Program-made: the position numbers and the translations under genes
Shown here: piece by piece, positions 9,014 through 34,209 of the stretch
Layout of the letters: each line of letters opens with the position of its first letter
Numbering within the stretch: the stretch's first letter is position 1
Notes under the pieces: generated by a model
Seen by the model: only the letters and a program-made list of their open reading frames with translations
The model's database searches: none
What the model was told of the DNA's origin: nothing
NCBI GenBank assembly: GCA_963733175.1
Contig: CAVTCL010000003.1
Location: forward strand, 11,640 to 75,639
Length of the DNA: 64,000 nt
DNA from: an uncultured Actinomycetota bacterium
GTDB taxonomy: Bacteria; Actinomycetota; CALGFH01
Direction of reading: 5' to 3'

Positions 9014-9340
9014 CAGGGAGGGGAGGCGAGATGGCCGAGGACCCGCCGCTGCCGCGGACCGAGCGGCCCGACGCGCCCCTGTACCTGGCCAGCTACCTGC
9101 GGCGGCGGGCCAGGGCGGCCGCTCCCGAGCCCGGCGGCGAGCCGGCACCGGCCGAGGCCGGGGCCGACGCGGCCACGCCGCTGTACCTGCGCCGGTTCCG
9201 GGAGCGGCGGGCCGACCCGGACGCCCCCGACGCCCCCCCGCCGGTCTGGAACGGCGAGCCGCTGGAGGTGACCAGGGCCTGGGCCGAGATCACCCGGACC
9301 AAGGAGATCGTCCCCGAGACCGGGCGCCGGCGCCTTCCGG

Positions 9341-11185: not shown

Positions 11186-11213
11186 CCCGGGCATCGACGG
11201 AAAGGACACGGCC

Positions 11214-13032: not shown

Positions 13033-13044
13033 GGAGGCCGTTGC

Positions 13045-14295: not shown

Positions 14296-14551
14296 GGCGG
14301 ACCTGCTGCCGGAGGACCCGCACCCCCTGCCGCCGCCCACCGCCTGGTTCGCCCGCGACGCCGAGCGCCACCTGCTGGACGCCCCCCGCCACTGCCCCCG
14401 CTGCGGCGCCGCCATCGGCGGTCCCGACGGCCTGGTGGTCGAGTACTGGGCGGCCGACGACCGCGTCTTCTACTGCTGGTGCCGCTCCTGCGACTGGACC
14501 GGCACCGTGGTCCAGGTCGACCGCCACATCGGCCACGAGGCGGCCGACTAG
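14288..14551 (+). CDS. small zinc-ribbon-like hypothetical protein
   Basis: 87 aa with CPRCGAA...CWCRSC (two CxxC pairs); ATG overlaps the oxygenase stop (ATGCCTGA). Confidence 0.4.
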   Translation: MPEADLLPEDPHPLPPPTAWFARDAERHLLDAPRHCPRCGAAIGGPDGLVVEYWAADDRVFYCWCRSCDWTGTVVQVDRHIGHEAAD

Positions 14552-14809
14552 GGAGCGGGTCGGGTATCCGGGTTGAGGGGACTTGGATGGCCGGCGTCGG
14601 GTAGGGCCGGGGGCCGTCGGGTCCGGTGCGGGTGGAGCTGGGCAGCGGTCGGGTCGGGACTGGCACGGTCGGGCCCCATGCAGTTGCCTGGCACGGGGGT
14701 TGGCCTCGACCCGGCGGGCACGCTGCGACGACCCGGCTCGGTGGGAGAAGTTGTCCCCAGATGTGGTTGTGGTGCTTGCCTTGGAGTGAGGGGCTGATAG
14801 GTTGCTCCC

Positions 14810-16157
14810 ATGGACTCGAACACACATTCGACCAGCCAGCCGACCGGGACACCAGCGGGGTTGTCGGCGCTGGTCGCCGAGCTCCAAGAGCTGGCCGACC
14901 AGGACCCGGACCGGCTGGCCGACGGCGCCCGGGCCGAGCGGGTCATGGTGTTGCGACAGCTGGTCGAGCGCCTGGAAGGCCACTGGCTGGCCGAACTGGC
15001 CGCCTGGACGCCCGCGGGGCCGCCGGCGCCGAGCAGGGCGTCCAGGCCGGCTCCACCGCCGGCTGGCTGCGCCACCGGCTGCGCATGAGCGCCGGCACCG
15101 CCGCCAGCTTGCGTCCGGACCGCCCGGGCGCTGTACCGCGGCCCCCTGACCCGGCACCGGCCAGGCCCTGGCCGACGGGGAGCCATCTCCCCGGCCCACG
15201 CCCAGGTGCTGGCCGCCGGCACCCAGGATCTGCCCGACCAGGTCACCGCCGAGGCCGAACCGGTCCTGCTGGAGGCGGCCCGGCGGCTGGACCCACCCCG
15301 GCTGCGACGAGCCATCGCCCACCTGCGCCTGGTGGCCGACCCCGACGGCGCCGACGCACCAGGCCGAACGGCGCCACAGCAGCGGGGGCTGTGGCTGTCG
15401 CCGACCTGGGAGGGCATGGTCGCCGTCAACGGGCTGCTGGACCCCGAGGCCGGCCAGACCCTGCTGGCCGCCCTGGAGCCGTTGGCCCGCCCCACCAACG
15501 CCGACGACACCCGCAGCGGGTGGCCAGCGCCGGGCCGATGCCCTCACCGAGCTGGCCCGCCGCACCCTGGAAGCCGGCCAGCTCCCCCAGAGCGGTGGGG
15601 TCCGGCCCCAGCTGCTGGTGACCGTGGACCTGGACAGCCTCCTCGGCCACCCCGGACTGGGCTGGGCGGGGAGGCCGGCGGGCCCTGGCCGCTGGACCCC
15701 GAGACCTGCCGGCGGCTGGCCTGCGACGGCGCCGTCACCCGGGTGCTGGTCACCCGCCACCGGACCCACCACCACCAGGACCCCGGCGGCGATGGGCAGC
15801 CTGGCCGGCCGGCTCCAGGCGGCGGCGACCCGGCTCCCCCCGGCCCTTGGCGGCGCCCCCACCCAACCGCTGGAGGTCGGCCGCACCAGCCGGGTCGTCA
15901 CCGCCGCCCAACGGGCCGCCCTGGTCGTCCGCGACGGCGGCTGTGCGGTGCCCGGCTGCGACCGGCCCCCGGCCTGGTGCGAAGCCCACCATCTCCGCCA
16001 CTGGCTCCATGGCGGCCCCACCGACCTGGCCAACCTGGCCTTGCTGTGCCGGGCCCACCATCGCGCGGTCCACGAGGGCGGCTGGCGGCTCACCCGCGGC
16101 CCGGACGGCCGGCTGGCCGCCACCCCACCGCATCGAAAACACCGTGCCGCGGCCTGA
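14810..16157 (+). pseudogene. HNH endonuclease / DUF222 (13E12-repeat family) gene disrupted by several frameshifts
   Basis: Pieces are spread over three frames: ..LVAELQELADQDPDRLADGARAERVMVLRQLVERLEGHWLAELAAW / LDARGAAGAEQG..AGWLRHRLRMSAGTAASL / ..ISPAHAQVLAAGTQDLPDQVTAEAEPVLLEAARRLDPPRLRRAIAHLRLVADPDG / ..VRDGGCAVPGCDRPPAWCEAHHLRHWLHGGPTDLANLALLCRAHHRAVHEGGWRL (HNH motif). Confidence 0.65.
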
Positions 16158-16215
16158 CCCGGCGACCCGACAACCGCACCTGACCCGCGACCCCGCCCAT
16201 GACCGAACTCCGGCC

Positions 16216-16920
16216 CTAGCGGGGGTCGCGCCGGAGTCGCCGGCGGGTGACGAACACGTACTCCCGGCTGTCGTCGGCGAACGGCTCGCGGGCGAAGCCG
16301 CCGTACAGCGCCTCCAGCTCCAGGCCGGCGATGTCGATGAGCCCGAGCCACTCGTTCCTGGTCGCCCACCACAGCGAACTCCTCGCGCCGTCGTCGCGGA
16401 CGATGTCGACCCGGTTGTCCCCGACCGCGTAGCGGATCGTGTGCGGTACCGGCTCGTCCTGGTGCTCGCCGTCCAGGCGGGCCGCGATCCGGTGGTCGAA
16501 GGCGAAGGCGTTCCAGGCGAACCGCCCGCCCGGCCGGAGGCAGGCGGCGACCCGCTCGAAGGTGCGGCGGCGGTCGGCCCAGGTCGGCAGGTGCAGGAGC
16601 GCCCGGAACGGGCAGTAGATCAGCGCCGCCGGCTCGTCCAGGGCGAGGTCGCGCATGTCGCCCTCGCGCAGGTCGAGCTCCACGCCCGCCTCGGCCGCGC
16701 GGGCCCGGGCCTGGGCGAGCATCGCCGGCGAGGAGTCGATGCCGATGACCCGCCGGCCGGTCGCCTGCGCGACCGGGATCGCGACCCGCCCGTTCCCGAT
16801 CGCCAGCTCGACCAGCGGCCCGTCCGCCTCGCGGGCCAGCTCGACGTAGAAGCCGACGTCGGCCGTCATGTGCGCCGACCATTCCTCGTAGTGGTTCGCG
16901 AACGCCTCGTCCCAGCTCAT
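16216..16920 (-). CDS. class I SAM-dependent methyltransferase
   Basis: ..VLELAIGNGRVAIPVA...IGIDSSPAML... Rossmann motif I; 234 aa. Confidence 0.7.
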   Translation of the reverse strand: MSWDEAFANHYEEWSAHMTADVGFYVELAREADGPLVELAIGNGRVAIPVAQATGRRVIGIDSSPAMLAQARARAAEAGVELDLREGDMRDLALDEPAALIYCPFRALLHLPTWADRRRTFERVAACLRPGGRFAWNAFAFDHRIAARLDGEHQDEPVPHTIRYAVGDNRVDIVRDDGARSSLWWATRNEWLGLIDIAGLELEALYGGFAREPFADDSREYVFVTRRRLRRDPR

Positions 16921-17012
16921 CGGCCCATGTTCCCATGCGCGACCGGCGGGCGGTCGCGGCGGGCGCCGCACCCGTTGACTGGTGACGGGGCGAGGGGCAG
17001 ATTACGGCCGAC

Positions 17013-18421
17013 ATGGCGGTCATCGATCCAGGTGCCCTGCGCGCGCTCCGGCGTCGGTTCGGAGGGCGGGTCCTGGGTCCCGACGACCCCGGGTATCGCG
17101 ACGCGCGCCGCGTCTGGAACGCGATGGTGGACCGGCGTCCGGCGGTCATCGCCAGGTGCGGCAGCCGGGAGGACGTGGTCGCGGCCATCTCCTTCGCCCG
17201 CCAGACCGGGCTCGAGGTGGCGGTGCGCAGCGGCGGTCACAGCGTCTCGGGCCACTCCTCCACCGACGGCGGCATCGTCATCGACTTGACCGAGATGCGC
17301 ACCGTCACGGTGGACCCCGAGGCGCGCGTCGCCAGGGTGGACGGGGGTGCGCTCCTGTGCCACCTGGACGCCGGGACCCAGCGGTTCGGGCTGGCCACCA
17401 CCGGGGGATGGTGTCCCACACCGGCGTCGGCGGGCTGACCCTCGGCGGCGGGTACGGCTACCTGTCCCGGCGGTTCGGGCTGGCCTGCGACAACCTGCTC
17501 GCCGCCGAGGTGGTGCTGGCCGACGGGACGGTCACCGTGGCCAGCGACTCCAGCGAGCCCGACCTGTTCTGGGGGCTCCGGGGCGGCGGGGGCAACTTCG
17601 GGGTCGTCACCCGCTTCGAGTTCCGCCTGCACCCCGTCGGGCCGGCCGTCTTCTCCGCCGACCTCACCTTCGCGGCCGACGACGGCCCGGCGGTCCTGCG
17701 CGCCTTCCGCGACCTCGCCCTCGGGCGGCAGGACATCGTCAGCGGCGCCTACGCCGGCGCGGTGTCCCGGTCCTGGGCCGGGTTCGACGACCTGGTCGGG
17801 CGGCCGATCGTGAGCGTGGACTTCACGGTGACGGGGCCGGACCCCGGCGAGGGCGCGGCCGTCGTGGCGTCGCTGCGGAGCGTCGCCACCCCGCTCGCCG
17901 AGACCGTCGAGTCCCTGTCCTATGTCGAGCTCCAGTCCGCCGCCGGGGCGTCCTGGCGGCCGGGCACGTCGCGCTGCTACTGGAAGTCCTCGGTCTTCTC
18001 CGAGCTCCCCGACGGGCTGCTGGACGCCTTCGTCGAGCGTGGGGTGGCGTCGGCCGCCGTCTCCGAGGGCTGCGGCCTGGAGCTGGTCGCCGCCTTCGGT
18101 GGCGCCGTCTCGGAGGTGGGAGAGGACGACACCGCGTTCAGCCACCGCCACGCCCAGGTCGACTTCCTCGCCCTCGGGCGGTGGGACGACCCGGCCGACG
18201 ACGAGCTCCACATCGAGCTGTGCCGCCGGAACTGGGCGGCGCTGGCCCGGTTCTCCGACGCCGGCGTGTACGTCAACAACCTGGGGCAGGAGGACCGGGT
18301 GCGCGAGGCCTACGGCGAGGCGAAGTACCGGCGGCTGGTCGCCCTCAAGGACCGGTTCGACCCGGACAACCTGTTCCACCTCAACGCGAACATCCGGCCG
18401 TCCGCGGGCGCTCGCGGCTAG
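17013..18421 (+). CDS. FAD-binding oxidoreductase (VAO/PCMH / BBE-like), copy 1, apparent frameshift
   Basis: ..VIARCGSREDVVAAISFARQTGLEVAVRSGGHSVSGHS.. then a frame change at the G5 run (about 17405) to ..VSHTGVGGLTLGGGYGYLSRRFGLACDNLLAAEVVLADG...GGGGNFGVVTRFEF...; C-terminal BBE-like domain. Confidence 0.75.
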
Positions 18422-18924
18422 CGTCGGCGGTCGCGCCGGACCACCAGCTCCAGCTCGACCGCGAACCCGAGCGGGAGGGCGGCCACCCCGACCGCCGAGC
18501 GGGCATGGCGGCCGCGGTCGCCGAACAGCTCCACCAGCAGGGCCGAGGCGCCGTCGACCACGGCCGGGACGGCGGTGAAGCCGGGGGTGCAGGCGACGAA
18601 GCCGACCAGCTTGACGACCTGGCCCACCTGGTCCAGGTCGCCGAGGGCGTCGCGGGTCTGGGCGAGCAGGTTCAGCGCGCAGTCGCGGGCGGCCTTCTGG
18701 CCCTGCTCGACGGTGAGGTCGGCCCCGAGGCGGCCGACCCAGCCGTCGGCGCCCTGGCCGGACAGGAACAGCAGGTCGCCGGCTGACACCCAGCCCTCGT
18801 ACAGCCCGGCCCTTGGCCGCAGCGCCGGCAGCTCCAGGCCCAGCTCGGCCAGCCGCCGTTCCGGGCCGGGTCCCTCCGGTGGCCGGCCGCGGGGTGGGAC
18901 GGCGAACACCCGGCCCGGGCTCAT
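18418..18924 (-). CDS. RidA/YjgF/TdcF-family protein (enamine/imine deaminase); candidate 2-aminomuconate deaminase
   Basis: 168 aa ..LVGFVACTPGFTAVPAVVDGASALLVELFGDRGRHARSAVGVAALPLG..; the RidA fold. Confidence 0.7.
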   Translation of the reverse strand: MSPGRVFAVPPRGRPPEGPGPERRLAELGLELPALRPRAGLYEGWVSAGDLLFLSGQGADGWVGRLGADLTVEQGQKAARDCALNLLAQTRDALGDLDQVGQVVKLVGFVACTPGFTAVPAVVDGASALLVELFGDRGRHARSAVGVAALPLGFAVELELVVRRDRRR

Positions 18925-19526
18925 CGGACGCTGAACACCCGGCCGGGCCCGGGCGGCGGCGGGTCGGGGTCGAGCCCGAGACGGGCGAGCAGGGCGGCGA
19001 TCGAGCCGGCGGGGTCGCGGACCTCGAACAGCAGCGTCTGCATCCCGACGGCGGCGGCACCTTCCAGGTTGACCGCCAGGTCGTCCACGAACAGGCAGCG
19101 CCCGGGGGCCTCGCCGATCTCGGCCGCGGCCAGCCGGAACGCCTCCGGGTCGGGCTTGAGCACCCCCAGGCGGGCCGCCTCCACCACCTGGTCGAACCCG
19201 CCCAGCTCCGGGAACCGCCCCGGCCAGTCAGGCCCGAACCAGTGCGCCATGTCGTTGGTGAACGCCACCAGCCGGACCCGCCCGGCCAGCGCATCCACCG
19301 CCGCCCGGACCTCGCCCCGCACCCGCGAGCAGGCCCGCCACAGCGCCCCCACGTCCAGGTCGGGCCGCCGCTCGCCCAGCCGGGCCCAGTAGTCCCGCTC
19401 GGCCAGCTCCCCCCGCTCCACGGCCGCGTACTCGGCCTCCCCCCGGAACGGCCCCCCGGGAAACCCCGCCACCGCCACCGACTCGAACAGGGTCGGGATC
19501 ACCACCCCACCCATGTCCAGCAGCAC
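18921..19526 (-). CDS. HAD-superfamily hydrolase, paralog 2
   Basis: VLLDMGGVVIPTLFE...CLFVDDLAVNLEGAAAVGMQTLLF; similar to the HAD genes at 686 and 30605; the start (GTG vs ATG 19514) is uncertain. Confidence 0.65.
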   Translation of the reverse strand: MLLDMGGVVIPTLFESVAVAGFPGGPFRGEAEYAAVERGELAERDYWARLGERRPDLDVGALWRACSRVRGEVRAAVDALAGRVRLVAFTNDMAHWFGPDWPGRFPELGGFDQVVEAARLGVLKPDPEAFRLAAAEIGEAPGRCLFVDDLAVNLEGAAAVGMQTLLFEVRDPAGSIAALLARLGLDPDPPPPGPGRVFSVR

Positions 19527-19924
19527 CGCCGCCGGCGCCCGCCCCGCCCTCCCGGCCCGGCCCCCGGCCCTGGCCCCGGCGGCCCGCCACAGCGCCCGCC
19601 GCCGCCGCACCGCCCAGTCGTCCAGGTCCACCGGAGCCCCAGCCCGCGCGGCCCCGGGGTCGACCGCGCAGAGGTCACCCGAGGGTGCACCTGGGGGCCA
19701 TGCACCCAGAAGGTGCACCCACCGCTCCTCGGATTGCCGCCGCTACCCCCCCAAGGGGGAGCGTAGACGACCCCGGATCTGGGTCCGGGTGCTCGTCCAC
19801 AGCCCCCTGGGGTCCTGGCGACCCCGGACCCGGGTCCCGTTGCCTGTCCACGGGCCCATCGGGTCCCCGGGTTCTCCTGGGCCCTCCGGGTCCCTCGGCA
19901 GCGACCATCGATCCGGTCCGCGGC

Positions 19925-21754
19925 CTACCCGAGCACCGTGACGACGCCTTCGCTGCCGTCGACCCGGATGCGCTGGCCGGTCTTGATGGTGGCGACCGCC
20001 TTGCCGGTGCCGATCACCGCCGGGAGGCCGTACTCGCGGCAGATGATGGCGGTGTGGCTCATGATCCCGCCGACGTCGGAGACGGTGGCGGCGATCCGGG
20101 AGAACACCGGCGACCACGACGGCGAGGTGGCCGGGCAGACCAGGATCTCGCCCTCCTGGACCTGGTCCAGCTCGGTGACGTGGCGCACGACCCGGGCCGG
20201 GCCCTCGACCACCCCGGGCGACCCGGCCACCCCGCGCAGGGTCGCCTGGCCGTCGCCGTCGCCCTCGCCTTCCCGGAGCCATTCGCCGACCGTGTCGGTG
20301 GTGATGCCCCAGAGCATGACCGTGAACGGCTCGCTCACCTCGGCCGGCGGCGGCCCGAGGGCGGGGACGGCGTCGGCCGCCGACAGCGCCGCGTGGATGC
20401 GGCGCCGCTCGGTCACGATCGGCCGCCAGTAGTCGGCCCCCCGGGCCCTGCTCCCCACCGACCAGGCGGCCACGGCGTCGTACAGCGCCTCCATGACCTC
20501 GTAGCGGCGCAGGAAGAACATGTCCTCGGGGTCGTCGAAGATGCCCATGGCCTGGAGGGCCCGCGACAGCTCCTTGGACTTGCCCCAGAAGGTGGCCCAC
20601 AGCCAGTGCTCGATGTAGAGCACGTGCTCCTCGATGTAGACGAACACCTTGCGGGCCAGGGCGACCATCTCGTCGAAGGCGGCCTGGTCGCCTTCGGCCA
20701 GCAGCGCCCGGTACTCGGCGGTGATCCGGTCGCGCTCGGCCAGGACCTGCTCGGTCGGGCGGTCGAGGGCCTCGCCGGCCCGCAGCCGGCGCACGTACTC
20801 CTTGACCGAGGCCAGCGGGATGCCGGGGTCGTCCAGCCAGGTGTCGTAGTAGTGGTAGCCGCCCGGGTGCCCGGGGTCGGTGTTGAACAGGAACCACGGG
20901 TCCGAGGTCCGCTCCCAGTCGGCCACCCACTCGCGGCCGCCCTCGCTCCCCTTGAGCTCCTCGAACAGCGAGCCCGGGTCGCCGGCGCCAAGGACGGCCT
21001 CGCCGACCCCGAGGCGCTCGGCCTCCTTGGCCAGGCGCTTGAGCTCGTCGTCGGGCCGGTACAGGTCGACGTGGAGGCCGCCCACCATGCGCGAGATCGA
21101 CTGGTCGGTGATGTCACCGAACGCCTGCTTGGCGAACATGAAGAAGGTCAGGTAGGCGGCGTAGCCGACGTTGAGCAGCTCGAAGTGGTACTGGTAGGTC
21201 TTGTACATGGTCAGGACGAGGTTGGAGAAGTCCTCGATCATCCGGTACCCGGACGAGTAGCCGACGTGGTCGAAGACCACCGACTCGTCCTCCAGCTCGG
21301 GCAGGGGCTCGAACCGGATCGCCTTGATCTCCTCCAGGTGGGCGGTGACCTTGTCCTTCCACTCGGCGTAGATCTGGTCCCAGTGCTCGTAGTAGTGGCC
21401 GCCGCGGCGGCCGAACAGCTCGGCCCGCGCGGGCACGCTCTCGGGCGGCGCCGGGACCGGGGTCACGTACAGGTAGCCGTTGAGGATCCGCTGGTCCACC
21501 CCGAAGGCGGGCGGCATGGCGAAGATGCGGGTGTTGAACGCCCCCAGGGCCTGCCACCAGCACTCGCACTGGATCTCGTCGTAGGGGTGGAGCACGCCCG
21601 GGTGGTGCAGCCGGTCCTGGAACCAGAACCGCTGCTCGTCCAGGTCGCGGCGGTCGTCGCCGAACAGGTGGTACCAGTTGTACATCTGCTCCCAGCCCTC
21701 GGCCCCCTCGGGCGTCGGCACCTCGAACGGGCTGGGGAAGCGGTCCTGGCTCAA
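19925..21754 (-). CDS. PEP-utilising enzyme with mobile (swivel His) domain (PpsA-like), copy 2 (intact)
   Basis: 609 aa (M/L)SQDRFPSPFEVPTPEGAEGWEQMYNWYHLF...GVAGSPGVVEGPARVV...EILVCPATSPSWSPVFSRIAATVSDVGGIMSHTAIICREYGLPAVIGTG; TTG start overlaps the BMC vertex gene stop (TTGA). Confidence 0.85.
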   Translation of the reverse strand: MSQDRFPSPFEVPTPEGAEGWEQMYNWYHLFGDDRRDLDEQRFWFQDRLHHPGVLHPYDEIQCECWWQALGAFNTRIFAMPPAFGVDQRILNGYLYVTPVPAPPESVPARAELFGRRGGHYYEHWDQIYAEWKDKVTAHLEEIKAIRFEPLPELEDESVVFDHVGYSSGYRMIEDFSNLVLTMYKTYQYHFELLNVGYAAYLTFFMFAKQAFGDITDQSISRMVGGLHVDLYRPDDELKRLAKEAERLGVGEAVLGAGDPGSLFEELKGSEGGREWVADWERTSDPWFLFNTDPGHPGGYHYYDTWLDDPGIPLASVKEYVRRLRAGEALDRPTEQVLAERDRITAEYRALLAEGDQAAFDEMVALARKVFVYIEEHVLYIEHWLWATFWGKSKELSRALQAMGIFDDPEDMFFLRRYEVMEALYDAVAAWSVGSRARGADYWRPIVTERRRIHAALSAADAVPALGPPPAEVSEPFTVMLWGITTDTVGEWLREGEGDGDGQATLRGVAGSPGVVEGPARVVRHVTELDQVQEGEILVCPATSPSWSPVFSRIAATVSDVGGIMSHTAIICREYGLPAVIGTGKAVATIKTGQRIRVDGSEGVVTVLG

Positions 21755-22059
21755 GGGCTGGTCCTTTCCGCTCGGCGTTCCGCTCGGCGGGGCTTGGGGG
21801 AGGTGGGCGGGGTCGGGAGCCGGTCGGCGCCCGCGACCAGGGCGACCACGGCCGCGTCGACGGCCGCCCCGCCGGTGGCGGTCTGGGCGGCGTCGTCGGT
21901 GACGACCAGCACGGTGTTGCCGGCGGCCACGTCGACCAGGTCGACGGCCACGTGCGCGGCCGAGGTGGACAGGTCCCGGACCAGCACCATGCGGCGGCCG
22001 TCCAGGTCGGGCACCTGGCGCTCGGACCAGACCCGGCCGAGGACCTCGGCCAGCAGCAT
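21751..22059 (-). CDS. bacterial microcompartment vertex protein (BMC-P, EutN/CcmL/PduN family)
   Basis: 102 aa MLLAEVLGRVWSERQVPDLDGRRMVLVRDL...GNTVLVVTDDAAQTATGGAAVDAAVVALV matches the PF03319 pattern (V.G.vw..r...l.g..l.lv...G..vl...g.a....vDaavv); ATG overlaps the BMC-H stop (ATGA). Confidence 0.8.
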   Translation of the reverse strand: MLLAEVLGRVWSERQVPDLDGRRMVLVRDLSTSAAHVAVDLVDVAAGNTVLVVTDDAAQTATGGAAVDAAVVALVAGADRLPTPPTSPKPRRAERRAERTSP

Positions 22060-22397
22060 CAGGCGCTCCCGCGGGACTTCTTGCCGGACTCGATCGCCCG
22101 GCCCGAGAGCTGCTCGGCGGTGCCGTTGGCCAGCAGCGCCGAGGCGACCTCGTGCGGCTTGGGGTAGATCTGGGCCGAGCGCAGGTCGCCGTAGCGGCGG
22201 ACCGCCTCGGCGCCGGCGTCCATGGCCTGGCGGACGGCGGCGATGCTGCCCTGGATGGCGGCGGCGAAGTAGCCGCTGGACACCCGCTCGACGGCGACGC
22301 ACTCCACGTCGGCGGTCTTCATCATGGCTTCGATCCCGGCCGTGAGCCCGACCACCCCGCGGGTCTCGAACAGGCCGATGGCACGCTCCGACGGCAT
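22059..22397 (-). CDS. bacterial microcompartment shell protein, BMC-H (PF00936), copy 1, with a C-terminal tail
   Basis: MPSERAIGLFETRGVVGLTAGIEAMMKTADVECVAVERVSSGYFAAAIQGSIAAVRQAMDAGAEAV then about 35 aa of tail; aggagg Shine-Dalgarno. Confidence 0.85.
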   Translation of the reverse strand: MPSERAIGLFETRGVVGLTAGIEAMMKTADVECVAVERVSSGYFAAAIQGSIAAVRQAMDAGAEAVRRYGDLRSAQIYPKPHEVASALLANGTAEQLSGRAIESGKKSRGSA

Positions 22398-22406
22398 CTG
22401 GGCCTC

Positions 22407-22700
22407 CTATCCGTCCAGCAGCCGCGGGTTGCCGGCGATGGCCGCGACCGGCCGGCTCGGGCTGGCGAAGATGATCGACTTGACCTTGCCCCGGGAGACG
22501 GCCCTGGCCGTCTCCTCCCCGATCTCCACCGCCTCCTCGACGGTGGCCAGGTCGCCCCCGAGGGCGACCGCGACCAGTCCCCCGCCCAGGCGCATCACCC
22601 CGTTCACCCGCACCTCGGTCGCCTTCACCATCGCGTCGATGGCGTCGAAGATGGGGACGAACCCTTCGGCCTCGATGAACCCGGCCGCCTCGTTGGCCAT
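22407..22700 (-). CDS. bacterial microcompartment shell protein, BMC-H, copy 2
   Basis: MANEAAGFIEAEGFVPIFDAIDAMVKATEVRVNGVMRLGGGLVAVALGGDLATVEEAVEIGEETARAV; ggagg Shine-Dalgarno. Confidence 0.85.
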   Translation of the reverse strand: MANEAAGFIEAEGFVPIFDAIDAMVKATEVRVNGVMRLGGGLVAVALGGDLATVEEAVEIGEETARAVSRGKVKSIIFASPSRPVAAIAGNPRLLDG

Positions 22701-22723
22701 GCCGCTCCTCCCTCTCGTGCGTG

Positions 22724-23549
22724 TCAGGTGCCGTCCAGCCAGGTGACCACGGCCGCCCCGGTCCCCCAGACCGGGCCGTACTCGAGCACCCGGGCCTGGC
22801 CGTCGCAGGCGCCGCTGCCGGCCAGGAAGGCCAGCGCCCGGAACTGGCTGTCCGCCTGCGCCTCGCGGGCGTACTGCTCGCGCAGGGCCAGCGACCTCGT
22901 CGGTCCGGCCGGCGGCGAGCAGGTCGAGCACGCGGCGGTTCCAGGCGTCGTGGCCGGCGTCCTCGAAGCGGTCCTCGGCCGGCTCGATCCAGCGCTGGAT
23001 GAGGCCCGAGGACAGGCCCGAGATGGCCACGAAGGCGACCCGCCGGCCGAGCTCGCCGGCCGCCCGGGCCGCCGCCTCGGCGATCCGGCCGAGGTCGCCG
23101 GCGGCGGCGTACAGGTTGCAGGAGACCAGCGCGATCGGGCGCGAGCGGTCGGGGTCGACCAGCCGGCCGGCGACCACCGTGCCGGTGTCGACCGGGAAGC
23201 CGTCGTAGCGGGTGCGCCTGGCCTGGAAGCCCATGTCCTCGGCCTGGCAGGCCCAGGCCTCGGCCAGCTCCACGTCGACCCGGAGGTCGTAGTCGAGGGT
23301 GCCGTAGTCGTAGGCGTACCAGTTCTCGTCGACGTGGTGGCCGCGGGGGTTGGGGTCGACCTGGAACTGGTGGCCGAGCACGGTGAACCACTGGGTCGAG
23401 AGGACCACGAACGCGTCCGGGCCGGCCGCCAGGAGGTCCCGGCCGGCCTGCCGGGCCGCGTCGGCCAGCAGCTTCCAGCTCGGCGCCGGCTCGGCCGCCA
23501 GCAGGTGCGGCATCCCCGGGACGAGGGCCGCCCCGACGACCGCCTTCAT
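22724..23549 (-). CDS. LigB-type (class III) extradiol ring-cleavage dioxygenase subunit, copy 2 (AmnA/AmnB-like), apparent frameshift near the 3' end
   Basis: MKAVVGAALVPGMPHLLAAEPAPS...VVLSTQWF...HQFQVDPNPRGHHVDENWYAYDYGTLDYDLRVDVELAEAWA...; the C-terminal ..LALREQYAREAQADSQFRALAFLAGSGACDGQARVLEYGPVWGTGAAVVTWLDGT* is found in another frame from about 22895. Confidence 0.75.
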
Positions 23550-23562
23550 CGGGCACCCCGCT

Positions 23563-24528
23563 CACGAACGGGCTCCGGTCATCGGGGCGGGGCCGGCCGG
23601 CGTCGTCGGGGCCGGGGGCCCAGCCCGGCGGGGCGGGATGGGCCAGGGCCGGGCTGGCCGGGTCCCATTCGATCACCGCGTTGCCGGTGCCGATGATGGT
23701 CCCGTAGCCGAGCACGTCCCCCGGGATCTCCGGCCAGCCGAGGGCCGACAGCAGCCACGACAGGCTGCCCGCCTTGACCTCGGCCGCGGTGGCCTCGATG
23801 TGGCGGGGCAGGAACGCCCGCAGCTCCCGGGTCCTGCCCGCCCGGACCAGGGTGAGGAGATCCATGTCCCAGCGGTACTGGTGGTCGTCGTAGGGGTGCT
23901 CGGCGGCCATGTCCTCCGGCACCTCCGGCTCCCGGTCCCAGTGGAGGTGGGAAAGCGAGTTCGACCCGGCCAGCACGGCCCGCCGCCCGGTCTGCTCGAC
24001 GGCCCGGCGGGTGGCCGCGCCGAGGCGTTCCATCTGCTCCAGGTCGGCGTCGGAGTAGAAGTAGGGGTTGTTGTTGGCCGACAGCGACACCACCGGGACG
24101 TCCCAGTCCGGGTTGAGCAGGTGCAGGGCGCCGATGGTGGCGTAGTCGACCCGCACCCCCGGGTTGGTCATCTTGCGGGTGACCAGGCCGGCGTCGGCGG
24201 CGCAGTCGGCGATCGCCTCGGCCAGCTCGACGTCGGTGCGGAAGTCGTACCGGTAGCGCAGCAGGTGCGGGAAGATCGGCTCGACCGACAGGCCGCGGGG
24301 GTTGGGCACGCAGTTCACGTGGTGGCCGACCATGGTGATCCAGTGGGGGGCGTGGACCACGATCACGTCGGGCCGGTGCCGCTCCCGCAGCCGCCGCCTG
24401 GCCTCCTGATAGGCCCAGCGCAGCAGCTCCCAGCCACCCCGGGAGCGGGGCTCGTTCTGGGGCGGGTTCTCGGCGTAGATCAGATGCGGCGGGTGCGGCG
24501 CCAGGTACCCGGCCACGATCCCCGGCAT
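23563..24528 (-). CDS. LigB-type (class III) extradiol ring-cleavage dioxygenase subunit, copy 1 (AmnB/AmnA-like); 3' end uncertain
   Basis: MPGIVAGYLAPHPPHLIYAENPPQNEP...VVHAPHWITMVGHHVNCVPNPRGLSVEPIFPHLLRYRYDF...GYGTIIGTGNAVIEWD; no stop in this frame, while the +1 frame has a TGA at 23563-23565, 14 nt before the next ATG, so an indel near 23570-23660 is likely. Confidence 0.7.
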
Positions 24529-24679
24529 GCGGTCGTCGCCGTCCGGGCCCGGTCCGGCCGCCGGGACGGCCGCCGGAGGCTGGGCCGTCCGCGGCGCCCG
24601 CCGCCGGTCCCCCACGGTGACGTGGAAGACACGCGACATGCCCGGACGCTAGCCACCGGCTCGCCCGTTGCCTACGCTT

Positions 24680-24700
24680 GTGTCCGGTATCACCGGACAC
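24680..24700. promoter_or_regulatory. perfect inverted repeat GTGTCCGGT-atc-ACCGGACAC in the divergent IclR / dioxygenase-BMC promoter region; candidate operator
   Basis: 9-bp arms are exact reverse complements with a 3-bp spacer, 18 nt upstream of the IclR ATG (24718) and about 150 nt upstream of the dioxygenase ATG (24528). Confidence 0.55.
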
Positions 24701-24717
24701 CTGGCGGTAGGGCTGGG

Positions 24718-25479
24718 ATGACGAACAACGTCGCCCGGGTGGGCTCGGTCACCAAGGCGGCGCGGGTGCTGCAGGCGTTCACGCCGTTGGTGACCTTGCT
24801 CAGTGTGCGGCAGGTGGCCGAGCGGACCGGGATCCCGCGGAGCACCGCGCATGCGCTGTGCGTGACCCTGTGCGATGCCGGGCTGCTGGAGGAGGCGGCG
24901 GGCCGGGGATACCGGCTGGGGCCGGCCCTGGTCGGGCTCGGCGGGCAGGTGATCGAGCGGACCGGGCTGGTCGACGCCGCCGAGGGGGTGCTGGACCGCC
25001 TGGGTCCCGGGGACGGGCTCGAGATCCACCTGGGCCAGCTCGTCGGGGGGTGGGTCGTGTACCTGGACCGGGCCAGCGGGCCGGTGCGGGCGCCGATGCA
25101 CAACCGGGTCGGGCTGCGGGCCCCGGCCCACCTGACCGGGTGCGGCAAGGCCGCCCTGGCGCTGCTGCCGCCGGCCGAGGTGGCGGCCCGGGTCGAGGCG
25201 GTGTGCGCGGCCGAGTCGCGCCAGCTCCCCGACCTGCGCGCCCTGGCCGGGGAGCTGGCCGCCGCCCGGCGGGCCGGGTTCGTGGTCAGCGACACCTTCC
25301 AGGCCGGCCGCACCTCGGTGGCCGCCCCCGTCCCCGACCCGGCCGGCCAGCCGGCCGGCGGCATCTCGGTCGCCGGCCCGACCCCGCTGCTGGCCGGCGC
25401 CCGCCTCGACCGGATCCGGGACCAGGTGGTGGCGGCGGCCAGCCTGATCGGCCAGCGCCTGGCCGGCCCCGGCCGCTGA
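24718..25479 (+). CDS. IclR-family transcriptional regulator, divergent from the BMC/dioxygenase operon
   Basis: MTNNVARVGSVTKAARVLQAF...LSVRQVAERTGIPRSTAHALCVTLCDAGLL (helix-turn-helix) plus an effector domain; 253 aa. Confidence 0.8.
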   Translation: MTNNVARVGSVTKAARVLQAFTPLVTLLSVRQVAERTGIPRSTAHALCVTLCDAGLLEEAAGRGYRLGPALVGLGGQVIERTGLVDAAEGVLDRLGPGDGLEIHLGQLVGGWVVYLDRASGPVRAPMHNRVGLRAPAHLTGCGKAALALLPPAEVAARVEAVCAAESRQLPDLRALAGELAAARRAGFVVSDTFQAGRTSVAAPVPDPAGQPAGGISVAGPTPLLAGARLDRIRDQVVAAASLIGQRLAGPGR

Positions 25480-25503
25480 GCGGCCAGGGCATCCGCACGT
25501 CCG

Positions 25504-26656
25504 TCAGGCCCGGTCCGGGGACGGGGACCTGACGGCCCCGGCGATCTGGCCGGCGATCCGCTCGGCGTCCCGGCCGACCCCGCCGAGCAGCGAGGAGGTG
25601 AACCCGCTCAGGAACCACAGGCCGATGAAGTACAGGCCGGGCTGGGACGCGACCACGCCGCGGTCGTGCCGCGGGAGGCCGTCCTGGTCGAAGACCGGCA
25701 GGTCGACCCAGCCGAAGTCGGGCCGCGACCCGGTGCACCAGATGAGGTTGGCCACCTCCATGACGCGGCCGTCCTCCAGCACCGGGAGGCCGTCGCGCAC
25801 CCCGACCGTCCGCGGCACCCGCTCGACCCCGGCGGCGGCCAGCTCCTTGGGCCGCACCCGCTCCAGCGGCGCGGGGGTGATGCAGGGCCTTGGGCCGGAC
25901 CTTGCGGCCGACGGGGGTGTCGACGGTCAGCACGCGCGAGGCGAACCACCAGAACGGCGGGGTGAGCAGCCGGTCCCAGCGGCCGCCGGCGCGCACCGGG
26001 ATGTGGCCGGTGTCGGGGCCCGACAGCCAGGTCGGGTGGGCGCGCGAGACCTCCCAGGCGATCTCGGCCCCGGAGTTGCCGGCCCCCACCACCAGCACCC
26101 CGCCGGGCGCGCAGCTGGGAGGGGTTCCGGTAGCGGCTGGTGTCGAGCTGGACGATGCCCGGGTCGAGCTCGGCGGCGAAGGCGGGCACCCGGGGGCGCT
26201 GGTAGGCGCCGCTGGCCACCACCACCTGGTCGGCCTCCCAGCGGCGGTCGCCGGCCGCCACCAGGAAGCGGCCGCGCTGCCCAGGCGAGCCGGTCGACGC
26301 GGACGCCGTGGCGCACCGGGAGCTCGAACCGGGCGGCGTAGGCCTCCAGGTAGTCGGCGACCTCGTCCCTGGTCGGGGAACGACCAGGCCGGCGCGGGGA
26401 AGGGCAGGCCGGGCAGCCCCGAGTAGCGCGCCGGGGTGAACAGGCGCAGCGAGTCCCAGCGCCGCCGCCAGGCGTCCCCGGTCCGCTGGTCGGCGTCGAG
26501 GATCACGAACGGCCGGTCCCGCCTGGCCAGGTGGTAGCCGACGGCCAGGCCGGCCTGCCCGCCGCCGACGATCACGGTCTCGATCCGCTCCCCCGCCCGG
26601 CGGGGCCCTGGCCGGGCCGCAGGCACGTCCTGCTGGTTGCCCATGGCCGCCTCCAT
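25504..26656 (-). CDS. FAD/NAD(P)-binding flavin-containing monooxygenase (CzcO/TrkA-C-like), multiple apparent frameshifts
   Basis: ..ETVIVGGGQAGLAVGYHLARRDRPFVILDADQRTGDAWRRRWDSLRLFTPARYSGLPGLPFP.. / ..FLVAAGDRRWEADQVVVASGAYQRPRVPAFAAELDPGIVQLDTSRYRNPSQL.. / GVLVVGAGNSGAEIAWEVSR.. / ..ELAAAGVERVPRTVGVRDGLPVLEDGRVMEVANLIWCTGSRPDFGWVDLPVFDQDGLPRHDRGVV..PGLYFIGL are spread over three or more frames. Confidence 0.7.
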
Positions 26657-27540
26657 CAGGACGCTCCCGAGCGCGGCCCGCAGCGCCTGCAGGAACGCCT
26701 CGGGCTGCTCGACGGCGGGGTCGTCGGCGGCCCGCTCGACCACGTGCAGGGGCCAGCCGTAGCGGGCGCTGGCCGCCTCGGCGAGGCCGAGCCGCACCTG
26801 CCGGTCGTGGCGCCCCCAGATCAGGGTGGTGGGGGCGGCGATCCGGGCCAGCTCGGCCGGCGGGATCGCCGGCACCCCGAGCTGCGGCATCAGGTGCTTG
26901 AGGGCCTTGTTCACCCCGGGCGCGCGGGCCCGGTCGAGCGCGTACGCCTCCACCAGCTCGCCGCGCTCCCCCAGCCGCTCGCGCAGCCCGTCGAGGTCGA
27001 AGACGCACTGGCGGAACAGCCGCTCCTGGGTGCCCTCGGTCGGGCGGGCGGCGTAGGCGACCATGGCCAGGGCGTAGCGCGGCGTCGGCCAGAACCGGCC
27101 GAGGCCATAGGTGTCGACCAGCACCAGCCGGCCGAGCCGGTCCGGGTGGTCGATGGCGAAGCGGGCGGCGATCGCGCCGCCGAGCAGGTGGCCCGACCAG
27201 CGCCGGCGGCGACGGGCAGGTGCGCTCGACCAGCTCGCCCAGCCAGGCGAGTCACCCCCGCGGTGTCCAGCGGCGCGCCGGCGAGTCCCGAGGCGCCGTG
27301 GCCGGGCAGGTCGGGGGCGATCACCCGGTGGGTCCGGACCAGCTCGGGGATCACCTGCAGCCAGCAGGCGGCGAACTCCCCGGGGCCGTGCAGCAGCACG
27401 ACCGGCGGGCCGTCGCCGCCCTCCAGCACCGCGGTCGGGTGGCCGGCCAGGGTCAGCCGTCGCTCGCGCACGGGAGCGCCGGCGAGCAGGCGTTCGCGGA
27501 TGCCCTCCCCGGCCCGCTGGCGGGCCTGCAACCTCGGCAT
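26656..27540 (-). CDS. alpha/beta-fold hydrolase, apparent frameshifts
   Basis: ..PVVLLHGPGEFAACWLQVIPELVRTHRVIAPDLPGHGASG.. then ..GHLLGGAIAARFAIDHPDRLGRLVLVD... then ..IWGRHDRQV..; GxSxG-like HLLGG nucleophile elbow; two indels at about 27215-27270; the stop is implied by a TGA/ATG junction at 26654-26658. Confidence 0.65.
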
Positions 27541-27679
27541 CGGAACTGGTCATGGCGGACTCCTCCTGGTCGTTCGGTGACCCTGCCCGGCCAGGATGGG
27601 ACCGGACGGGCGGGCCACGCATCGGCCGAACCCGCCAGCTCGACCGGACGGCCGGCATGGGTGATTGCCGCCAGGACGC

Positions 27680-29325
27680 TCAGATGAGGCCGTGCTGGTA
27701 GGCGTGGGCGGTGGCCGCGGCCCGCGAGGAGACGCCCAGCTTGGCGAGGATGTTGCTCATGTGCCGGTCCACGGTCCGCTCGCTGACGAACAGGTCGGCG
27801 GCGATGGCCCTGTTGGTCTCGCCGGCCGCCACCAGGCGCAGCACCTCCAGCTCGCGCGGGGTCAGCCCGCCCGCCCCGGCGGCCGCCCCACCGGAGAGCG
27901 CCTCCACCCGGGCCAGGTCGGGGGCGGCCGCCAGCTCGCGGAAGACCAGGCGGGCGGCCGCCAGCTCCAGCTCGGCGCAGTCCCGGTCTCCCAGCTCCCG
28001 GCAGGCCAGCCCGATCAGGGCCCTGACCCGCCCCGCCTCGTACGGCACCTCCAGCTCCTGCCAGGCCGTCCAGGCGGCGGCGCAGGGCGCCCAGCGCGGC
28101 CCGCGGGTCGCCCTGGGCGAGCAGGACCGCCCCGTTGGCGTGGGCGGCCACCGCGGTCAGGTAGGGCGCGCCGAGGTCGTCGGCGAGCCGGGTCAGCTCG
28201 TCGGCGGCGGCGCCGCGCCGCCTCCACCTCGCCGGCGGCCAGCAGGATCTCGACCTGCGCCGGGAGCAGCCGTGAGCGGGACACGCGGTCGGCCGCCTCG
28301 TCCACCACCCGGCGGATCGCGGCCGCGGCGGTGTCGACCTGGCCCTGGGCCAGCCGCAGCAGGGCCAGGCCGGGCTGGGGGTCGCGGCCCCACTGGCTGG
28401 CCTGGCGGTAGGCCTCCTCGGCTCTGGCGAACTCGCCGCGCAGCCGGTGGAGCTCGCCCTGCTGGTAGTAGGCCAGCCCGGCCGCCGGATGGCCAGGCGG
28501 GTCCGAGAGCCGCTCGGCGGCCCGCTCGGCCTCCTCCATGGCGTCCGGCCAGGCGCCGTGGAGGGCCATGATCTCGGAGCGGTGGACCAGGCACTGGCCC
28601 CGGAAGGGGACCAGCTCCGGCTGGGCGGCGCACCAGCGGGTCAGCGCCGCCGTCCACTGCTGGGCCCGGCCCAGGTCGTAGATCTCCTGGCAGGCTTCGA
28701 TCACGGCGCAGTAGACGATCCCGGCCACCATCGGCGACACCTCGTCGGCCTCGACGGCGACCATGGCCTCGTCCAACAGGGCCACGCCCGCCACCGTCTC
28801 CCCCTCCAGCAGCCGCGCCCCGCCCAGGCCGAGGCGACCCAGCGCCATCAGGTCCGGGTCGCCGAAGCGGGCGCCGATCCTGGCCACCTGGTCGAAGTCG
28901 GCCCCGGCGGCCGTGGCGTCGCCCTCGACCAGGGCCTGGAGCGCCCCCGGGAACAGCAGGTAGCCCCGCTCGACGCAGTCGAGCTGGCCGTCGTCGAGCA
29001 GCCGGCGGGCCCGGGCCATCCAGCCCCCACCCCGGGCATGGTCGCCCCGGTTGAGGTACGCGTAGGCCAGCCAGAACGCGCCCCGCACGGCGCGCTCCAC
29101 CTCGCCCCGGTGCAGGAACGCGTGATGGGCGCGCGTCCCGAACTCGGCGCCGTCGTCGTCCCGGCCCACCAGGTAGGCGGCGGTGGCCAGCAGCTCCAGG
29201 TCCTCCGGGCCCAGCGGGGCCTGGCGGTCGGCGGCCGACAGCTGGGCGAAGGCTCCCGCCCATGCCCGCCGCGCGAAGGCCCGCCGACCCTCCTCGAGAG
29301 CATCAGCGCCTGCCATTTCCGGCAC
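27680..29325 (-). CDS. LuxR-family transcriptional regulator (N-terminal helical/TPR-like region plus C-terminal LuxR helix-turn-helix), apparent frameshifts
   Basis: The C-terminus [45 protein letters not shown] is the canonical LuxR helix-turn-helix; the N-terminal [33 protein letters not shown]...[15 protein letters not shown] is typical of actinobacterial LuxR regulators; three frames are used between 27700 and 28150. Confidence 0.7.
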
Positions 29326-29370
29326 CTTACCGGTCCGGCCGGCCGGCGGACAGCCCCGGGGCCGCCCTCG

Positions 29371-29850
29371 TCAGCGGCCCGGGTCGACCGGGGTCCGCTG
29401 GTCGGGGACGGCGGTCGGGTCGAGGACCCAGTGCTGGCTGACGGTGGCCCGGTAGAGGCGGTACAGGGAGGGCGCCAGGACGTCGGCGGGGGTCTTGCTG
29501 CGGGCCCCGGCGCGCAGGCCGGCCTCGCCCGGGTAGACCTGGAGGCCGCGCTCCAGGTCGGGGCCGGACAGCTCGGCGGCCGTGGCCGCCATGTAGACGG
29601 CCTGGCCGGTGCCGACGGGGGCCTGGGAGTCGAACACGACGATGCTGAGCTCGGGTCGGGCGGCCAGGTTCCGCGAGTGGGTCGCCTCCGGGGAGGAGAT
29701 CCAGTAGAGGTCGCGGTAGTCGTCGGCGGCGAAGAACACCGGCGACACCCAGGGGTTGCCGGCGGCGTCGGCGGTGCCGAGGGTCATGTAGTGGTTGGCG
29801 TCGAGGATGGCCCTGGCGACGGCGTCCAGGTCGGGCTGCTGCTGGGTCAC
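29371..29850 (-). CDS. pyridoxamine 5'-phosphate oxidase (PPOX)-family protein, possibly F420/FMN-binding
   Basis: 159 aa ..AILDANHYMTLGTADAAGNPWVSPVFFAADD.. split-barrel motif; GTG start with ggagg Shine-Dalgarno; overlaps the esterase stop (GTGA). Confidence 0.65.
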   Translation of the reverse strand: MTQQQPDLDAVARAILDANHYMTLGTADAAGNPWVSPVFFAADDYRDLYWISSPEATHSRNLAARPELSIVVFDSQAPVGTGQAVYMAATAAELSGPDLERGLQVYPGEAGLRAGARSKTPADVLAPSLYRLYRATVSQHWVLDPTAVPDQRTPVDPGR

Positions 29851-34205: not shown

Positions 34206-34209
34206 GGCC

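Follow-up and report, generated by a model that had tools for sequence, protein, structure and literature searches.

A 64-kb stretch of DNA from an uncultured actinobacterium (64,000 nucleotides; hereafter, the window) carries an operon that joins the shell genes of a bacterial microcompartment (BMC) to the two subunit genes of an aromatic ring-cleavage dioxygenase. This ring-cleavage compartment locus is a further member of the already catalogued, partly characterised ARO (aromatics) type of BMC. It is very probably best explained as an ARO locus of the catalogued type II layout in an uncultured, high-GC actinomycete. GC content is ~75% throughout the window, and the closest loci, with 99% identity in the H_lipstickred shell protein, are in metagenome-assembled genomes (MAGs) labelled Actinomycetes or actinobacterium. 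We assigned the locus to the ARO type because the shell trio, the match of the dioxygenase to the ARO structure 7TXY, the divergent IclR regulator and the conserved core gene order are the defining features of this type.

The ARO type was named in a catalog of BMC loci that also includes the Pseudonocardiales 'type II' layout (Sutter, 2021; PMC8217296). In the supplement of the catalog, the distinction between type I (Micromonosporales) and type II (Pseudonocardiales) is drawn by locus diagram only (PMC8217296). A crystal structure for the ARO dioxygenase of Micromonospora rosaria followed in 2023, together with activity assays on 2-aminophenol and catechol, of which the amino substrate was preferred (Doron, Sutter and Kerfeld, 2023; PMC10470539). 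When the dioxygenase was assayed together with an aldehyde dehydrogenase, their coupling prevented the formation of picolinate (PMC10470539). The same authors named the feed of the compartment and the targeting of its cargo as open questions (PMC10470539). A first-pass annotation of the window had also called an ARO-type aromatic metabolosome, and the shell trio, a pair of LigB-type genes, the N-terminal extension of the beta subunit and the IclR gene are all present. Its description of such compartments as uncharacterised and at most catalogued is outdated by the 2021 catalog (PMC8217296) and the 2023 enzymology (PMC10470539), and it overlooked frame breaks in both dioxygenase genes and a kinase gene at the end of the shell operon.

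Shell genes, dioxygenase and layout of the locus

Three genes on the minus strand encode the shell. Two of them code for BMC-H proteins, one of the H_lipstickred type that serves as the marker hexamer of ARO loci (22407..22700; PF00936, E 2e-15) and one of the H_cerulean type (22059..22397; PF00936, E 2e-19). The third is a BMC-P vertex protein (21751..22059; PF03319, EutN_CcmL, E 5e-14, 53 bits, cut-off 25). The window has no BMC-T gene, and the shell is therefore composed of two distinct BMC-H proteins and one BMC-P protein, which is the minimal ARO composition and the one read by the first-pass annotation from the same genes. The clade labels of the two hexamers are based on the PKPH motif and on identity to the catalogued ARO genera. 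The translation of H_cerulean has a PRPH-type edge motif (YPKPH) where H_lipstickred has FASPSRPV, and H_lipstickred is 68–77% identical to ARO-locus proteins of Pseudonocardia, Micromonospora (including M. rosaria), Actinomadura and others. The H_cerulean protein was found identical on 7 metagenome contigs, and the BMC-P gene is syntenic in related loci.

That the three open reading frames (ORFs) are unrelated small proteins, the outcome named in the first-pass annotation as refuting its call, has a negligible chance of being correct. All of them score above the Pfam gathering cut-offs by a factor of 2–3, and 80 genomes retain the genes in conserved synteny. Furthermore, PDB searches with either hexamer protein gave dozens of matches among solved shell proteins (CcmK, CsoS1 and HO-5815 for H_lipstickred; EutM, PduA and HO-5815 for H_cerulean), and the BMC-P protein matches CcmL weakly. 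The shell genes lie directly downstream of the dioxygenase, as first described, and the first two junctions are short gaps rather than overlaps, of 23 nt between the alpha subunit and H_lipstickred genes and 9 nt between the H_lipstickred and H_cerulean genes. Overlaps of 1 to 4 nt occur further along the operon, at the junctions of H_cerulean with BMC-P, of BMC-P with a dikinase subunit gene and of a HAD hydrolase gene with a RidA gene.

The dioxygenase is encoded on the same strand by genes for an AmnA-like alpha subunit (22724..23549; PF02900, E 5e-10) and an AmnB-like, catalytic beta subunit (23562..24639; PF02900, E 1.5e-27). The beta subunit aligns from residue 1 with chain B of 7TXY, the 2-aminophenol 1,6-dioxygenase of the M. 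rosaria ARO locus (E 1e-157), and the window dioxygenase also matches 7TXY_A in the PDB search. Alignments to the non-BMC structures 3VSG_B (E 6e-112) and 8IHG_A (E 1.5e-107) begin only at residue 41. We placed the start of the beta gene at the ATG at 24639, where the protein begins MSRVFHVTVGDRRR, rather than at an internal methionine at 24528, because relatives retain the extension, which can be aligned with residues 1–33 of the M. rosaria protein. The pair of LigB-family genes annotated at 22724..24528 stands, with a revised beta start and with both frames broken. The homologous LigB-type alpha/beta enzymes AmnAB(CDEFGH) and CnbC of Pseudomonas and Comamonas (3VSG/3VSH, 8IHG) operate with analogous downstream chemistry, but these systems have no shell genes and a beta subunit that lacks the N-terminal peptide.

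Comparison with 80 related loci supports the placement of the locus. These loci were collected from a scan of one genome per species with an alignment of H_lipstickred homologs, and their gene content was determined by tblastn of the window proteins. The core order (an IclR gene divergent from beta, alpha, H_lipstickred, H_cerulean and BMC-P genes) is the same in ~70 related loci, so the genome-neighbourhood comparison that the first-pass annotation had proposed reveals a conserved shell core that matches the catalogued ARO type. What follows the shell genes varies. In 32 of the 80 loci, mostly from Micromonospora, they are followed by an aldehyde dehydrogenase and a lower pathway, as in the published model. 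In 39 of the 80, the shell genes precede a PPDK_N gene, a gene for a ~608-aa protein with a PEP-utilizers swivel domain at its end, a HAD gene and, usually, a RidA gene. Carriers of this second layout include Pseudonocardia, Actinomycetospora, Kibdelosporangium, Amycolatopsis and MAGs of Solirubrobacteraceae and Thermoleophilaceae, and a separate look-up found the same dikinase/HAD layout in Euzebya.

The window resembles the type I locus of M. rosaria in its core (IclR divergent from beta-alpha-H_lipstickred-H_cerulean-BMC-P), minimal shell, MSRVF peptide and lower meta-cleavage genes, and the type I beta subunit is ~76% identical to that of the window (tblastn, locus L034). In type I, however, the shell genes are followed by the aldehyde dehydrogenase, the whole lower pathway and HyuB, whereas the window has genes for a dikinase subunit, a HAD and RidA at this point. 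The aldehyde dehydrogenase and lower pathway are instead in a separate, IclR-controlled operon 17–21 kb away. Neither HyuA nor HyuB, the type I accessories, was found among the Pfam-scanned window genes. The combination of shell, dikinase, HAD and RidA genes is that of the type II loci of Pseudonocardia, Actinomycetospora, Kibdelosporangium, Amycolatopsis and Euzebya, and the PpsA-like, HAD and RidA genes of the window are in the type II order. The PPDK_N gene is not behind BMC-P but 7 kb upstream (31259..32299), where it is preceded by an ABC importer and followed by genes for a HAD and an alpha/beta hydrolase. This ATP-grasp gene upstream of the IclR gene (IclR1) distinguishes the window and its closest relatives (L001 and L007–L009) from other type II loci, as do the gain of a beta-type peptide by RidA, a ~30-aa C-terminal tail on the beta subunit and an adjacent operon with a second dikinase and a Rieske oxygenase. 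The tail is rich in proline (DPASPA.AHPAPPGWAPGPDDA.RPRPMTGARS, at 23590..23690) and is shared by the window, L002, L003 and L007–L009; the beta subunits of other ARO loci end shortly past VEW.

We also identified complete ARO-like cores in four MAGs labelled Rhizobacter, Rhodospirillaceae, Verticiella and Eremiobacterota (L061, L067, L070 and L073). Each has a beta subunit with an SRVFHL-type peptide, an alpha subunit, an H_lipstickred protein with 56–63% identity, H_cerulean and BMC-P, on contigs of 63–69% GC. These labels are at odds with an exclusively actinobacterial distribution, and binning error or horizontal transfer could explain them.

Frame breaks and other points against a working ARO locus

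Several points weigh against reading this cluster as a functional ARO locus. Both dioxygenase genes are broken in the sequence as it stands. The aldehyde dehydrogenase gene is not beside the shell genes but 21 kb away, although it is reported in all ARO loci (PMC10470539). The role of RidA as a 2-aminomuconate deaminase is drawn from context only. The comparison system has limits of its own, since M. rosaria does not grow on 2-aminophenol and its real substrate is therefore not given by the model (PMC10470539). Moreover, the ARO studies cited above contain no demonstration of shell assembly or of enclosed cargo, and the PDB contains no ARO shell structure.

The breaks in the dioxygenase genes were located by comparison with related contigs. 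Mapping against L001, L002, L003 and L007–L009 placed an extra C in a C-run at ~23587 of the beta gene, which abolishes the stop codon and leaves the frame open to 21751; the protein of close relatives terminates in RPRPMTGARS. In the alpha gene, an extra T at ~22893 shifts the frame, so that the last 55 aa (LALREQYAREAQ...WLDGT) are in another frame. The T insertion is common to the window and L001 and absent from L002, L003 and L007–L009. As a result of the shift, a 380-aa ORF (22407..23549) runs from the alpha gene in frame into the first BMC-H gene. We rejected a 380-aa alpha::BMC-H fusion protein as an explanation of this ORF: its 66-aa 'linker' consists of alpha sequence read out of frame, the genuine C-terminus survives intact in the other frame, and four short-read relatives lack the T insertion.

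Frame-state segmentation detected ~16 frame breaks without stop codons over the 64 kb, or roughly one per 4 kb, and those comparable with relatives are mostly single-base insertions. A flavin monooxygenase gene (25504..26900) has at least 4 breaks by eye, and genes for a LuxR-type regulator, an alpha/beta hydrolase, a solute-binding protein, one PPDK_N protein, the second dikinase and a BBE oxidase have one each. Two single-base insertions (10901 and 12832) are specific to the window and are in genes unrelated to the dioxygenase. Because the breaks are scattered over the whole window in unrelated genes, those in the alpha and beta genes are most likely single-base errors of an indel-prone, unpolished long-read assembly. 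Consistent with assembly error, the alpha and beta genes are intact in short-read contigs 95–98% identical to the window. A point on the other side is that L001, an independent contig with 96.5% identity to the window (~3.5% divergence), has the alpha insertion as well, so that the insertion could be an inherited mutation.

The frameshifts could alternatively be real mutations in a decaying, non-functional remnant that has lost its signature enzyme and its compartment. The disruption of both dioxygenase subunits and the sharing of the alpha T insertion with L001, but not with the short-read assemblies, are consistent with decay. Yet similar breaks recur about every 4 kb in genes as varied as those for the flavin monooxygenase, the LuxR-type regulator, the solute-binding protein, PPDK_N, the second dikinase and the BBE oxidase, and L001 is itself rich in single-base indels. 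Furthermore, the broken genes retain a third-codon-position GC content (GC3) of 0.92–0.97 without accumulating stop codons, and close relatives carry intact copies. We thus regard decay of the locus as improbable, and locus-specific frameshifting as less likely than assembly error with ~16 breaks spread across all 64 kb. Claims about gene integrity made from the window sequence nonetheless call for care.

Dikinase and phosphatase genes and a shared N-terminal peptide

The gene that overlaps the BMC-P stop codon (19925..21754, minus strand) encodes a protein with a C-terminal PF00391 domain that resembles the phosphohistidine and substrate-binding subunits PpsA, HpeH and CreH. NCBIfam models of the PRK08296 family cover its full length, whereas those of phosphoenolpyruvate (PEP) synthase and rifampin phosphotransferase (RPH) cover only the last ~105 residues. 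The protein has the invariant GGxMSH motif, with the histidine at position 567 of 609 aa and 42 residues from the C-terminus. Its AlphaFold (AF2) model (mean pLDDT 87, pTM 0.88) has RPH as the top fold match (TMq 0.6 over ~610 columns), a relationship likewise reported for HpeH (Dexter et al., 2025; PMC12167813). The probable partner is a stand-alone ATP-grasp subunit (PPDK_N) encoded at 31259..32299 on the minus strand (PF01326, E 6e-91), whose best PDB match is HpeI (9GOJ, E 1e-60). The window has a second stand-alone PPDK_N protein (10096..11185) as well as a second dikinase subunit, and the two dikinase paralogs are 43–44% identical to each other's clade.

From its sequence and modelled fold, we assigned 19925..21754 as a putative subunit of a two-component small-molecule dikinase of the HpeHI/CreHI/PpsAB kind. 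These enzymes phosphorylate a phenolic hydroxyl group, and the phosphate is removed later in the Hpe pathway (Dexter et al., 2025; PMC12167813). Like HpeHI of Rhodococcus, CreHI of Corynebacterium, PpsAB of Thauera and AcvAB of Sphingobium, the window proteins comprise an ATP-grasp subunit of ~350 aa and a ~600-aa subunit that combines an RPH-like substrate domain with a C-terminal swivel domain, the latter bearing the catalytic histidine in GGxxSH. The likeness to HpeH, CreH and PpsA is one of architecture, fold and the HpeI match of the partner. Phosphatase genes near the window dikinase are a further resemblance to the Hpe pathway. In the Cre pathway, too, intermediates are dephosphorylated at a later stage. 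Unlike all four characterised systems, however, the window dikinase is linked to microcompartment genes. A literature search for phenylphosphate synthase and microcompartments together found no paper, and the ARO study does not mention dikinase or HAD genes, stating HyuB as the only candidate for the upper pathway (PMC10470539).

Immediately downstream of the dikinase gene is one for a HAD-IA hydrolase (18921..19718, minus strand; PF00702, with HAD-IA and YihX-like NCBIfam hits), probably a phosphatase to judge from its sequence. Its motif I is DMGGV, YihX-like with a glycine at D+2. A stretch of ~50 aa at its N-terminus (C-x-x-P ... VDPxxWxxRRRRxLRR) is kept across type II loci and missing in two other HAD proteins of the window. 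A second HAD gene (30605..31258) and an alpha/beta hydrolase gene (29847..30608) were identified by Pfam in the same orientation as the PPDK_N gene, on the minus strand, and this hydrolase block (29847..31258) abuts IclR1 in L001.

The dikinase and HAD genes could be mere neighbours of the compartment genes and act independently of the shell, as a resistance-type or scavenging kinase would. In keeping with such independence, antibiotic kinases such as RPH belong to the family, the dikinase lacks the N-terminal peptide described below, and a 65%-identical homolog occurs in Anaerolineaceae in a phosphonate-type context without BMC genes. Against it stand the overlap of the dikinase start with the BMC-P stop codon and the recurrence of the PPDK_N-PpsA-HAD block behind the shell genes in 39 of the 80 loci, across Pseudonocardiales, Euzebya and Thermoleophilia MAGs. 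The same block also stays with shell genes like those of H_lipstickred and H_cerulean in an Actinoplanes locus that has a tryptophan 2,3-dioxygenase for the LigB pair. We therefore consider mere adjacency unlikely, though not far-fetched, and favour a functional link of the dikinase and HAD to the compartment.

The Actinoplanes locus (Actinoplanes sp. NPDC023801, JBFAAI010000031.1, 8266..14053) is a BMC locus with H_lipstickred-like (55%) and H_cerulean-like genes. It encodes a PPDK_N protein, a HAD and a dikinase 75% identical to that of the window, with the dikinase gene between the shell genes. The tryptophan 2,3-dioxygenase (PF03301) takes the place of the LigB pair, and the flanks contain Trp-synthase-like, PrnB-like and PALP genes. 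A literature search for tryptophan dioxygenase and bacterial microcompartments together found no paper. In the Anaerolineaceae MAG (L088/L089, 7790..12987), the dikinase and its PPDK_N partner are flanked by a CTP-transferase/PEP-mutase fusion on one side and a glycerophosphotransferase-like gene on the other, a context which indicates that the dikinase clade is not restricted to aromatic catabolism.

The beta subunit starts with a short conserved peptide, MSRVFHVTVGDRRR, followed by a Pro/Ala-rich linker (24598..24639, minus strand; motif M[SA][RKS]VF[RHQ]), which makes it a candidate encapsulation peptide. The whole extension is 37 aa long, begins MSRVFHVTVG, fits the motif M[SA][RKS]VF[RHQ][VLA][PTS].G and agrees with the 30–35 residues, absent from non-BMC homologs, expected at this end of an ARO beta subunit. 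The first 29 residues of the beta subunit are disordered in 7TXY (PMC10470539). In 66 related loci, the beta subunit reached at least 12 bits with a position-specific matrix of the peptide, against a null maximum of 6.3 bits over 85,572 start-anchored positions. In a strict pattern scan (~1.6 Mb, six frames), only beta subunits and the RidA of the window lineage had the motif close to an ORF start.

The matrix also retrieved proteins other than beta from ARO loci, with scores of 12.9–18 bits. They include M24/creatinase-family proteins of Streptosporangium, Microtetraspora and Nocardioides (two in the latter) and an MBL-fold protein in two Streptomyces. An M24 protein of Actinocorallia has the motif by a relaxed pattern scan and a matrix score below 12 bits. 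Pfam confirmed the M24 and MBL families, and the enzyme domains begin after 50–100 residues of Pro/Ala-rich linker, behind a peptide of the form M[AS]xVF[RH]VP.G. The genes for these proteins are at 12605..13972 (L024), 13680..15086 (L025), 4729..5991 and 13688..15112 (L049), 13622..14989 (L072), 15497..16753 (L020) and 15506 (L023). The RidA protein of the window begins MSPGRVFAVPP, a peptide that recurs with a linker of variable length in 66 of the 120 RidA cluster representatives closest to the window protein; RidA homologs below ~75% identity begin directly at the core, without it. The matrix had no hit on the aldehyde dehydrogenase, HyuB, dikinase or shell proteins. We could not tie the Arg-rich N-terminal stretch of the HAD protein to an MSRVF-type peptide either.

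The catalog reported that no encapsulation peptides were found in ARO loci (PMC8217296), and the later study describes an N-terminal extension for the beta subunit alone (PMC10470539). A short conserved peptide and a variable linker shared by unrelated enzymes of one BMC type suggest that the MSRVFxVP-type sequence is a common targeting or encapsulation signal. The M24/creatinase and MBL-fold proteins are, by the same token, candidates for additional cargo.

Regulation, substrate and metabolic context

The IclR1 gene (24718..25479, plus strand; PF09339, PF01614) diverges from the shell operon, and 60+ related loci have their copy in this place. The 78-nt intergenic region between IclR1 and the beta gene contains a perfect palindrome, TGTCCGGTATCACCGGACA (24681..24699), present as a single copy in the window. 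By itself, the palindrome is not statistically unusual in the window at up to 2 mismatches (expected 1.0). Its weight comes from positional conservation across loci: TGTCCnG-N5-CnGGACA is found upstream of the beta gene in 24 of 73 related loci, ~36-fold above the locus background. The palindrome is thus a candidate operator for IclR1. Promoter and terminator consensus scans of 18000..25600 returned nothing above shuffles.

The RidA/YjgF-family gene at the end of the main operon (18418..18924, minus strand; PF14588, PF01042) encodes a protein with Rid-family matches in the PDB and is a candidate 2-aminomuconate deaminase. Genes for the later steps are concentrated in a satellite operon (3..7084, minus strand; Pfam) behind a second IclR gene. 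It encodes a hydratase, DmpF, DmpG, a 4-oxalocrotonate decarboxylase, a tautomerase, a Rieske ferredoxin, a HAD and an aldehyde dehydrogenase, with a complete set of lower meta-cleavage genes, an aldolase gene included, at 1745..5429. The acylating acetaldehyde dehydrogenase (3814..4728) is ~17 kb from the shell genes. The only Aldedh (pfam00171) gene seen (3..689) is cut by the window end, and its product is 60–72% identical to the aldehyde dehydrogenases near type II loci and 44–49% identical to those of type I. A second aromatic operon (7201..14551, plus strand; Pfam, with indels measured against L009 and L001) contains two type I extradiol dioxygenase genes of the catechol-2,3-dioxygenase kind (7201..9013) and genes for a His-phosphatase, a Rieske oxygenase, a DUF7837 protein, PPDK_N (frame break ~10901) and the second dikinase subunit (frame break ~12832). 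The RidA and HAD genes, the catechol 2,3-dioxygenases and the full lower pathway ~17 kb away, ending in an acylating acetaldehyde dehydrogenase, had all been listed in the first-pass annotation, and Pfam places each of them in the window.

An ABC importer (32370..36800, minus strand; Pfam) consists of two permeases, an ATPase and a solute-binding protein with a twin-arginine (TAT) signal and a frame break at ~35817. Between IclR1 and the hydrolase block, a ~4.4-kb segment rich in frame breaks (25480..29850) encodes a flavin monooxygenase, an alpha/beta hydrolase, a LuxR-type regulator (break ~28050) and a PNPOx-like protein; it is missing from L001, as expected of an insertion or rearrangement. 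The region between RidA and the second dikinase operon (14552..18417) has an HNH-endonuclease/DUF222-like remnant with several frame breaks (14860..16100, plus strand), a methyltransferase gene and one for a BBE-type FAD oxidase. The RidA end of the main operon and the second dikinase operon are directly convergent in the related MAG L009. Outside the system is the right half of the window (38–64 kb), with genes for sugar hydrolases, transporters and regulators as well as DNA-polymerase fragments.

The layout is consistent with a pathway whose central steps follow the M. rosaria model. IclR1, probably acting on the palindrome at 24681..24699, would control a single operon for the dioxygenase, shell, dikinase, HAD and RidA. 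By analogy to M. rosaria, the MSRVF peptide of the beta subunit would target the dioxygenase into a small shell, where the enzyme would open a 2-aminophenol- or catechol-type ring to yield a reactive muconic semialdehyde. A non-acylating aldehyde dehydrogenase would then oxidise the semialdehyde, forestalling both its cyclisation to picolinate and its escape, as in the M. rosaria system. The gene context further suggests that the peptide-bearing RidA, itself cargo, deaminates 2-aminomuconate and that the satellite operon carries the product on to pyruvate and acetyl-CoA. Phosphorylated phenolics may be the route by which the dikinases, phosphatases, Rieske oxygenase and ABC importer of the same 38-kb region supply the ring-cleavage substrate, an upper pathway that we infer weakly by analogy to CreHI, HpeHI and PpsAB.

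The substrate could instead be of the catechol type, the 'catechol subtype' of Doron et al. (2023), or both kinds of ring could be handled. A 4-oxalocrotonate tautomerase gene (1745..1969) and the two catechol-2,3-dioxygenase-like genes in the cluster would suit catechol, and the M. rosaria enzyme cleaves both substrates (PMC10470539). The preference of that enzyme for the amino substrate (PMC10470539) favours 2-aminophenol, as does the distribution of the deaminase and tautomerase genes: the RidA/YjgF gene, whose product could act as a deaminase and carries a beta-type peptide, is in the main operon, whereas the tautomerase gene belongs to the satellite operon, which has an IclR gene of its own. 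A catechol-type substrate is thus possible but doubtful, and an aminophenol-type ring is the reading that we retain.

In a bolder scheme, which we offer as a long shot, the dikinase and HAD of type II ARO-like compartments would be integral to the logic of the organelle, a form of group translocation into a protein shell with peptide-sorted cargo. The phenolic substrate would be phosphorylated in the cytosol at the cost of ATP, and the anionic aryl phosphate would, speculatively, cross a charged H_lipstickred pore. The HAD phosphatase would then free the aminophenol or catechol only inside the shell, beside the dioxygenase. The non-helical N-terminal peptide (xSRVFxVPxG plus a Pro-rich linker) would sort the beta subunit, RidA and the M24/creatinase-like and MBL-fold hydrolases. 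If this were true, the short peptide would be a new class of encapsulation signal, and the Actinoplanes core of shell, dikinase and HAD genes with a tryptophan 2,3-dioxygenase would imply a wider family of 'ring-opening' compartments.

As one more example of a known BMC type from an uncultured lineage, the locus itself is of modest interest. Its value to the ARO field lies in three leads from the 80-locus comparison, namely the association with a dikinase, the shared peptide and the candidate operator. The dikinase/HAD block, the peptide on proteins other than beta and the palindrome are not discussed in the ARO papers (PMC8217296, PMC10470539), and all three leads are amenable to testing in the cultured carriers Actinomycetospora, Pseudonocardia and Euzebya. 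Roughly half of the species-level loci have a dikinase and a HAD behind the shell genes, which suggests that phosphorylated phenolics are intermediates. The peptide, found on four unrelated enzyme families, predicts extra cargo for these compartments and offers a testable tag.

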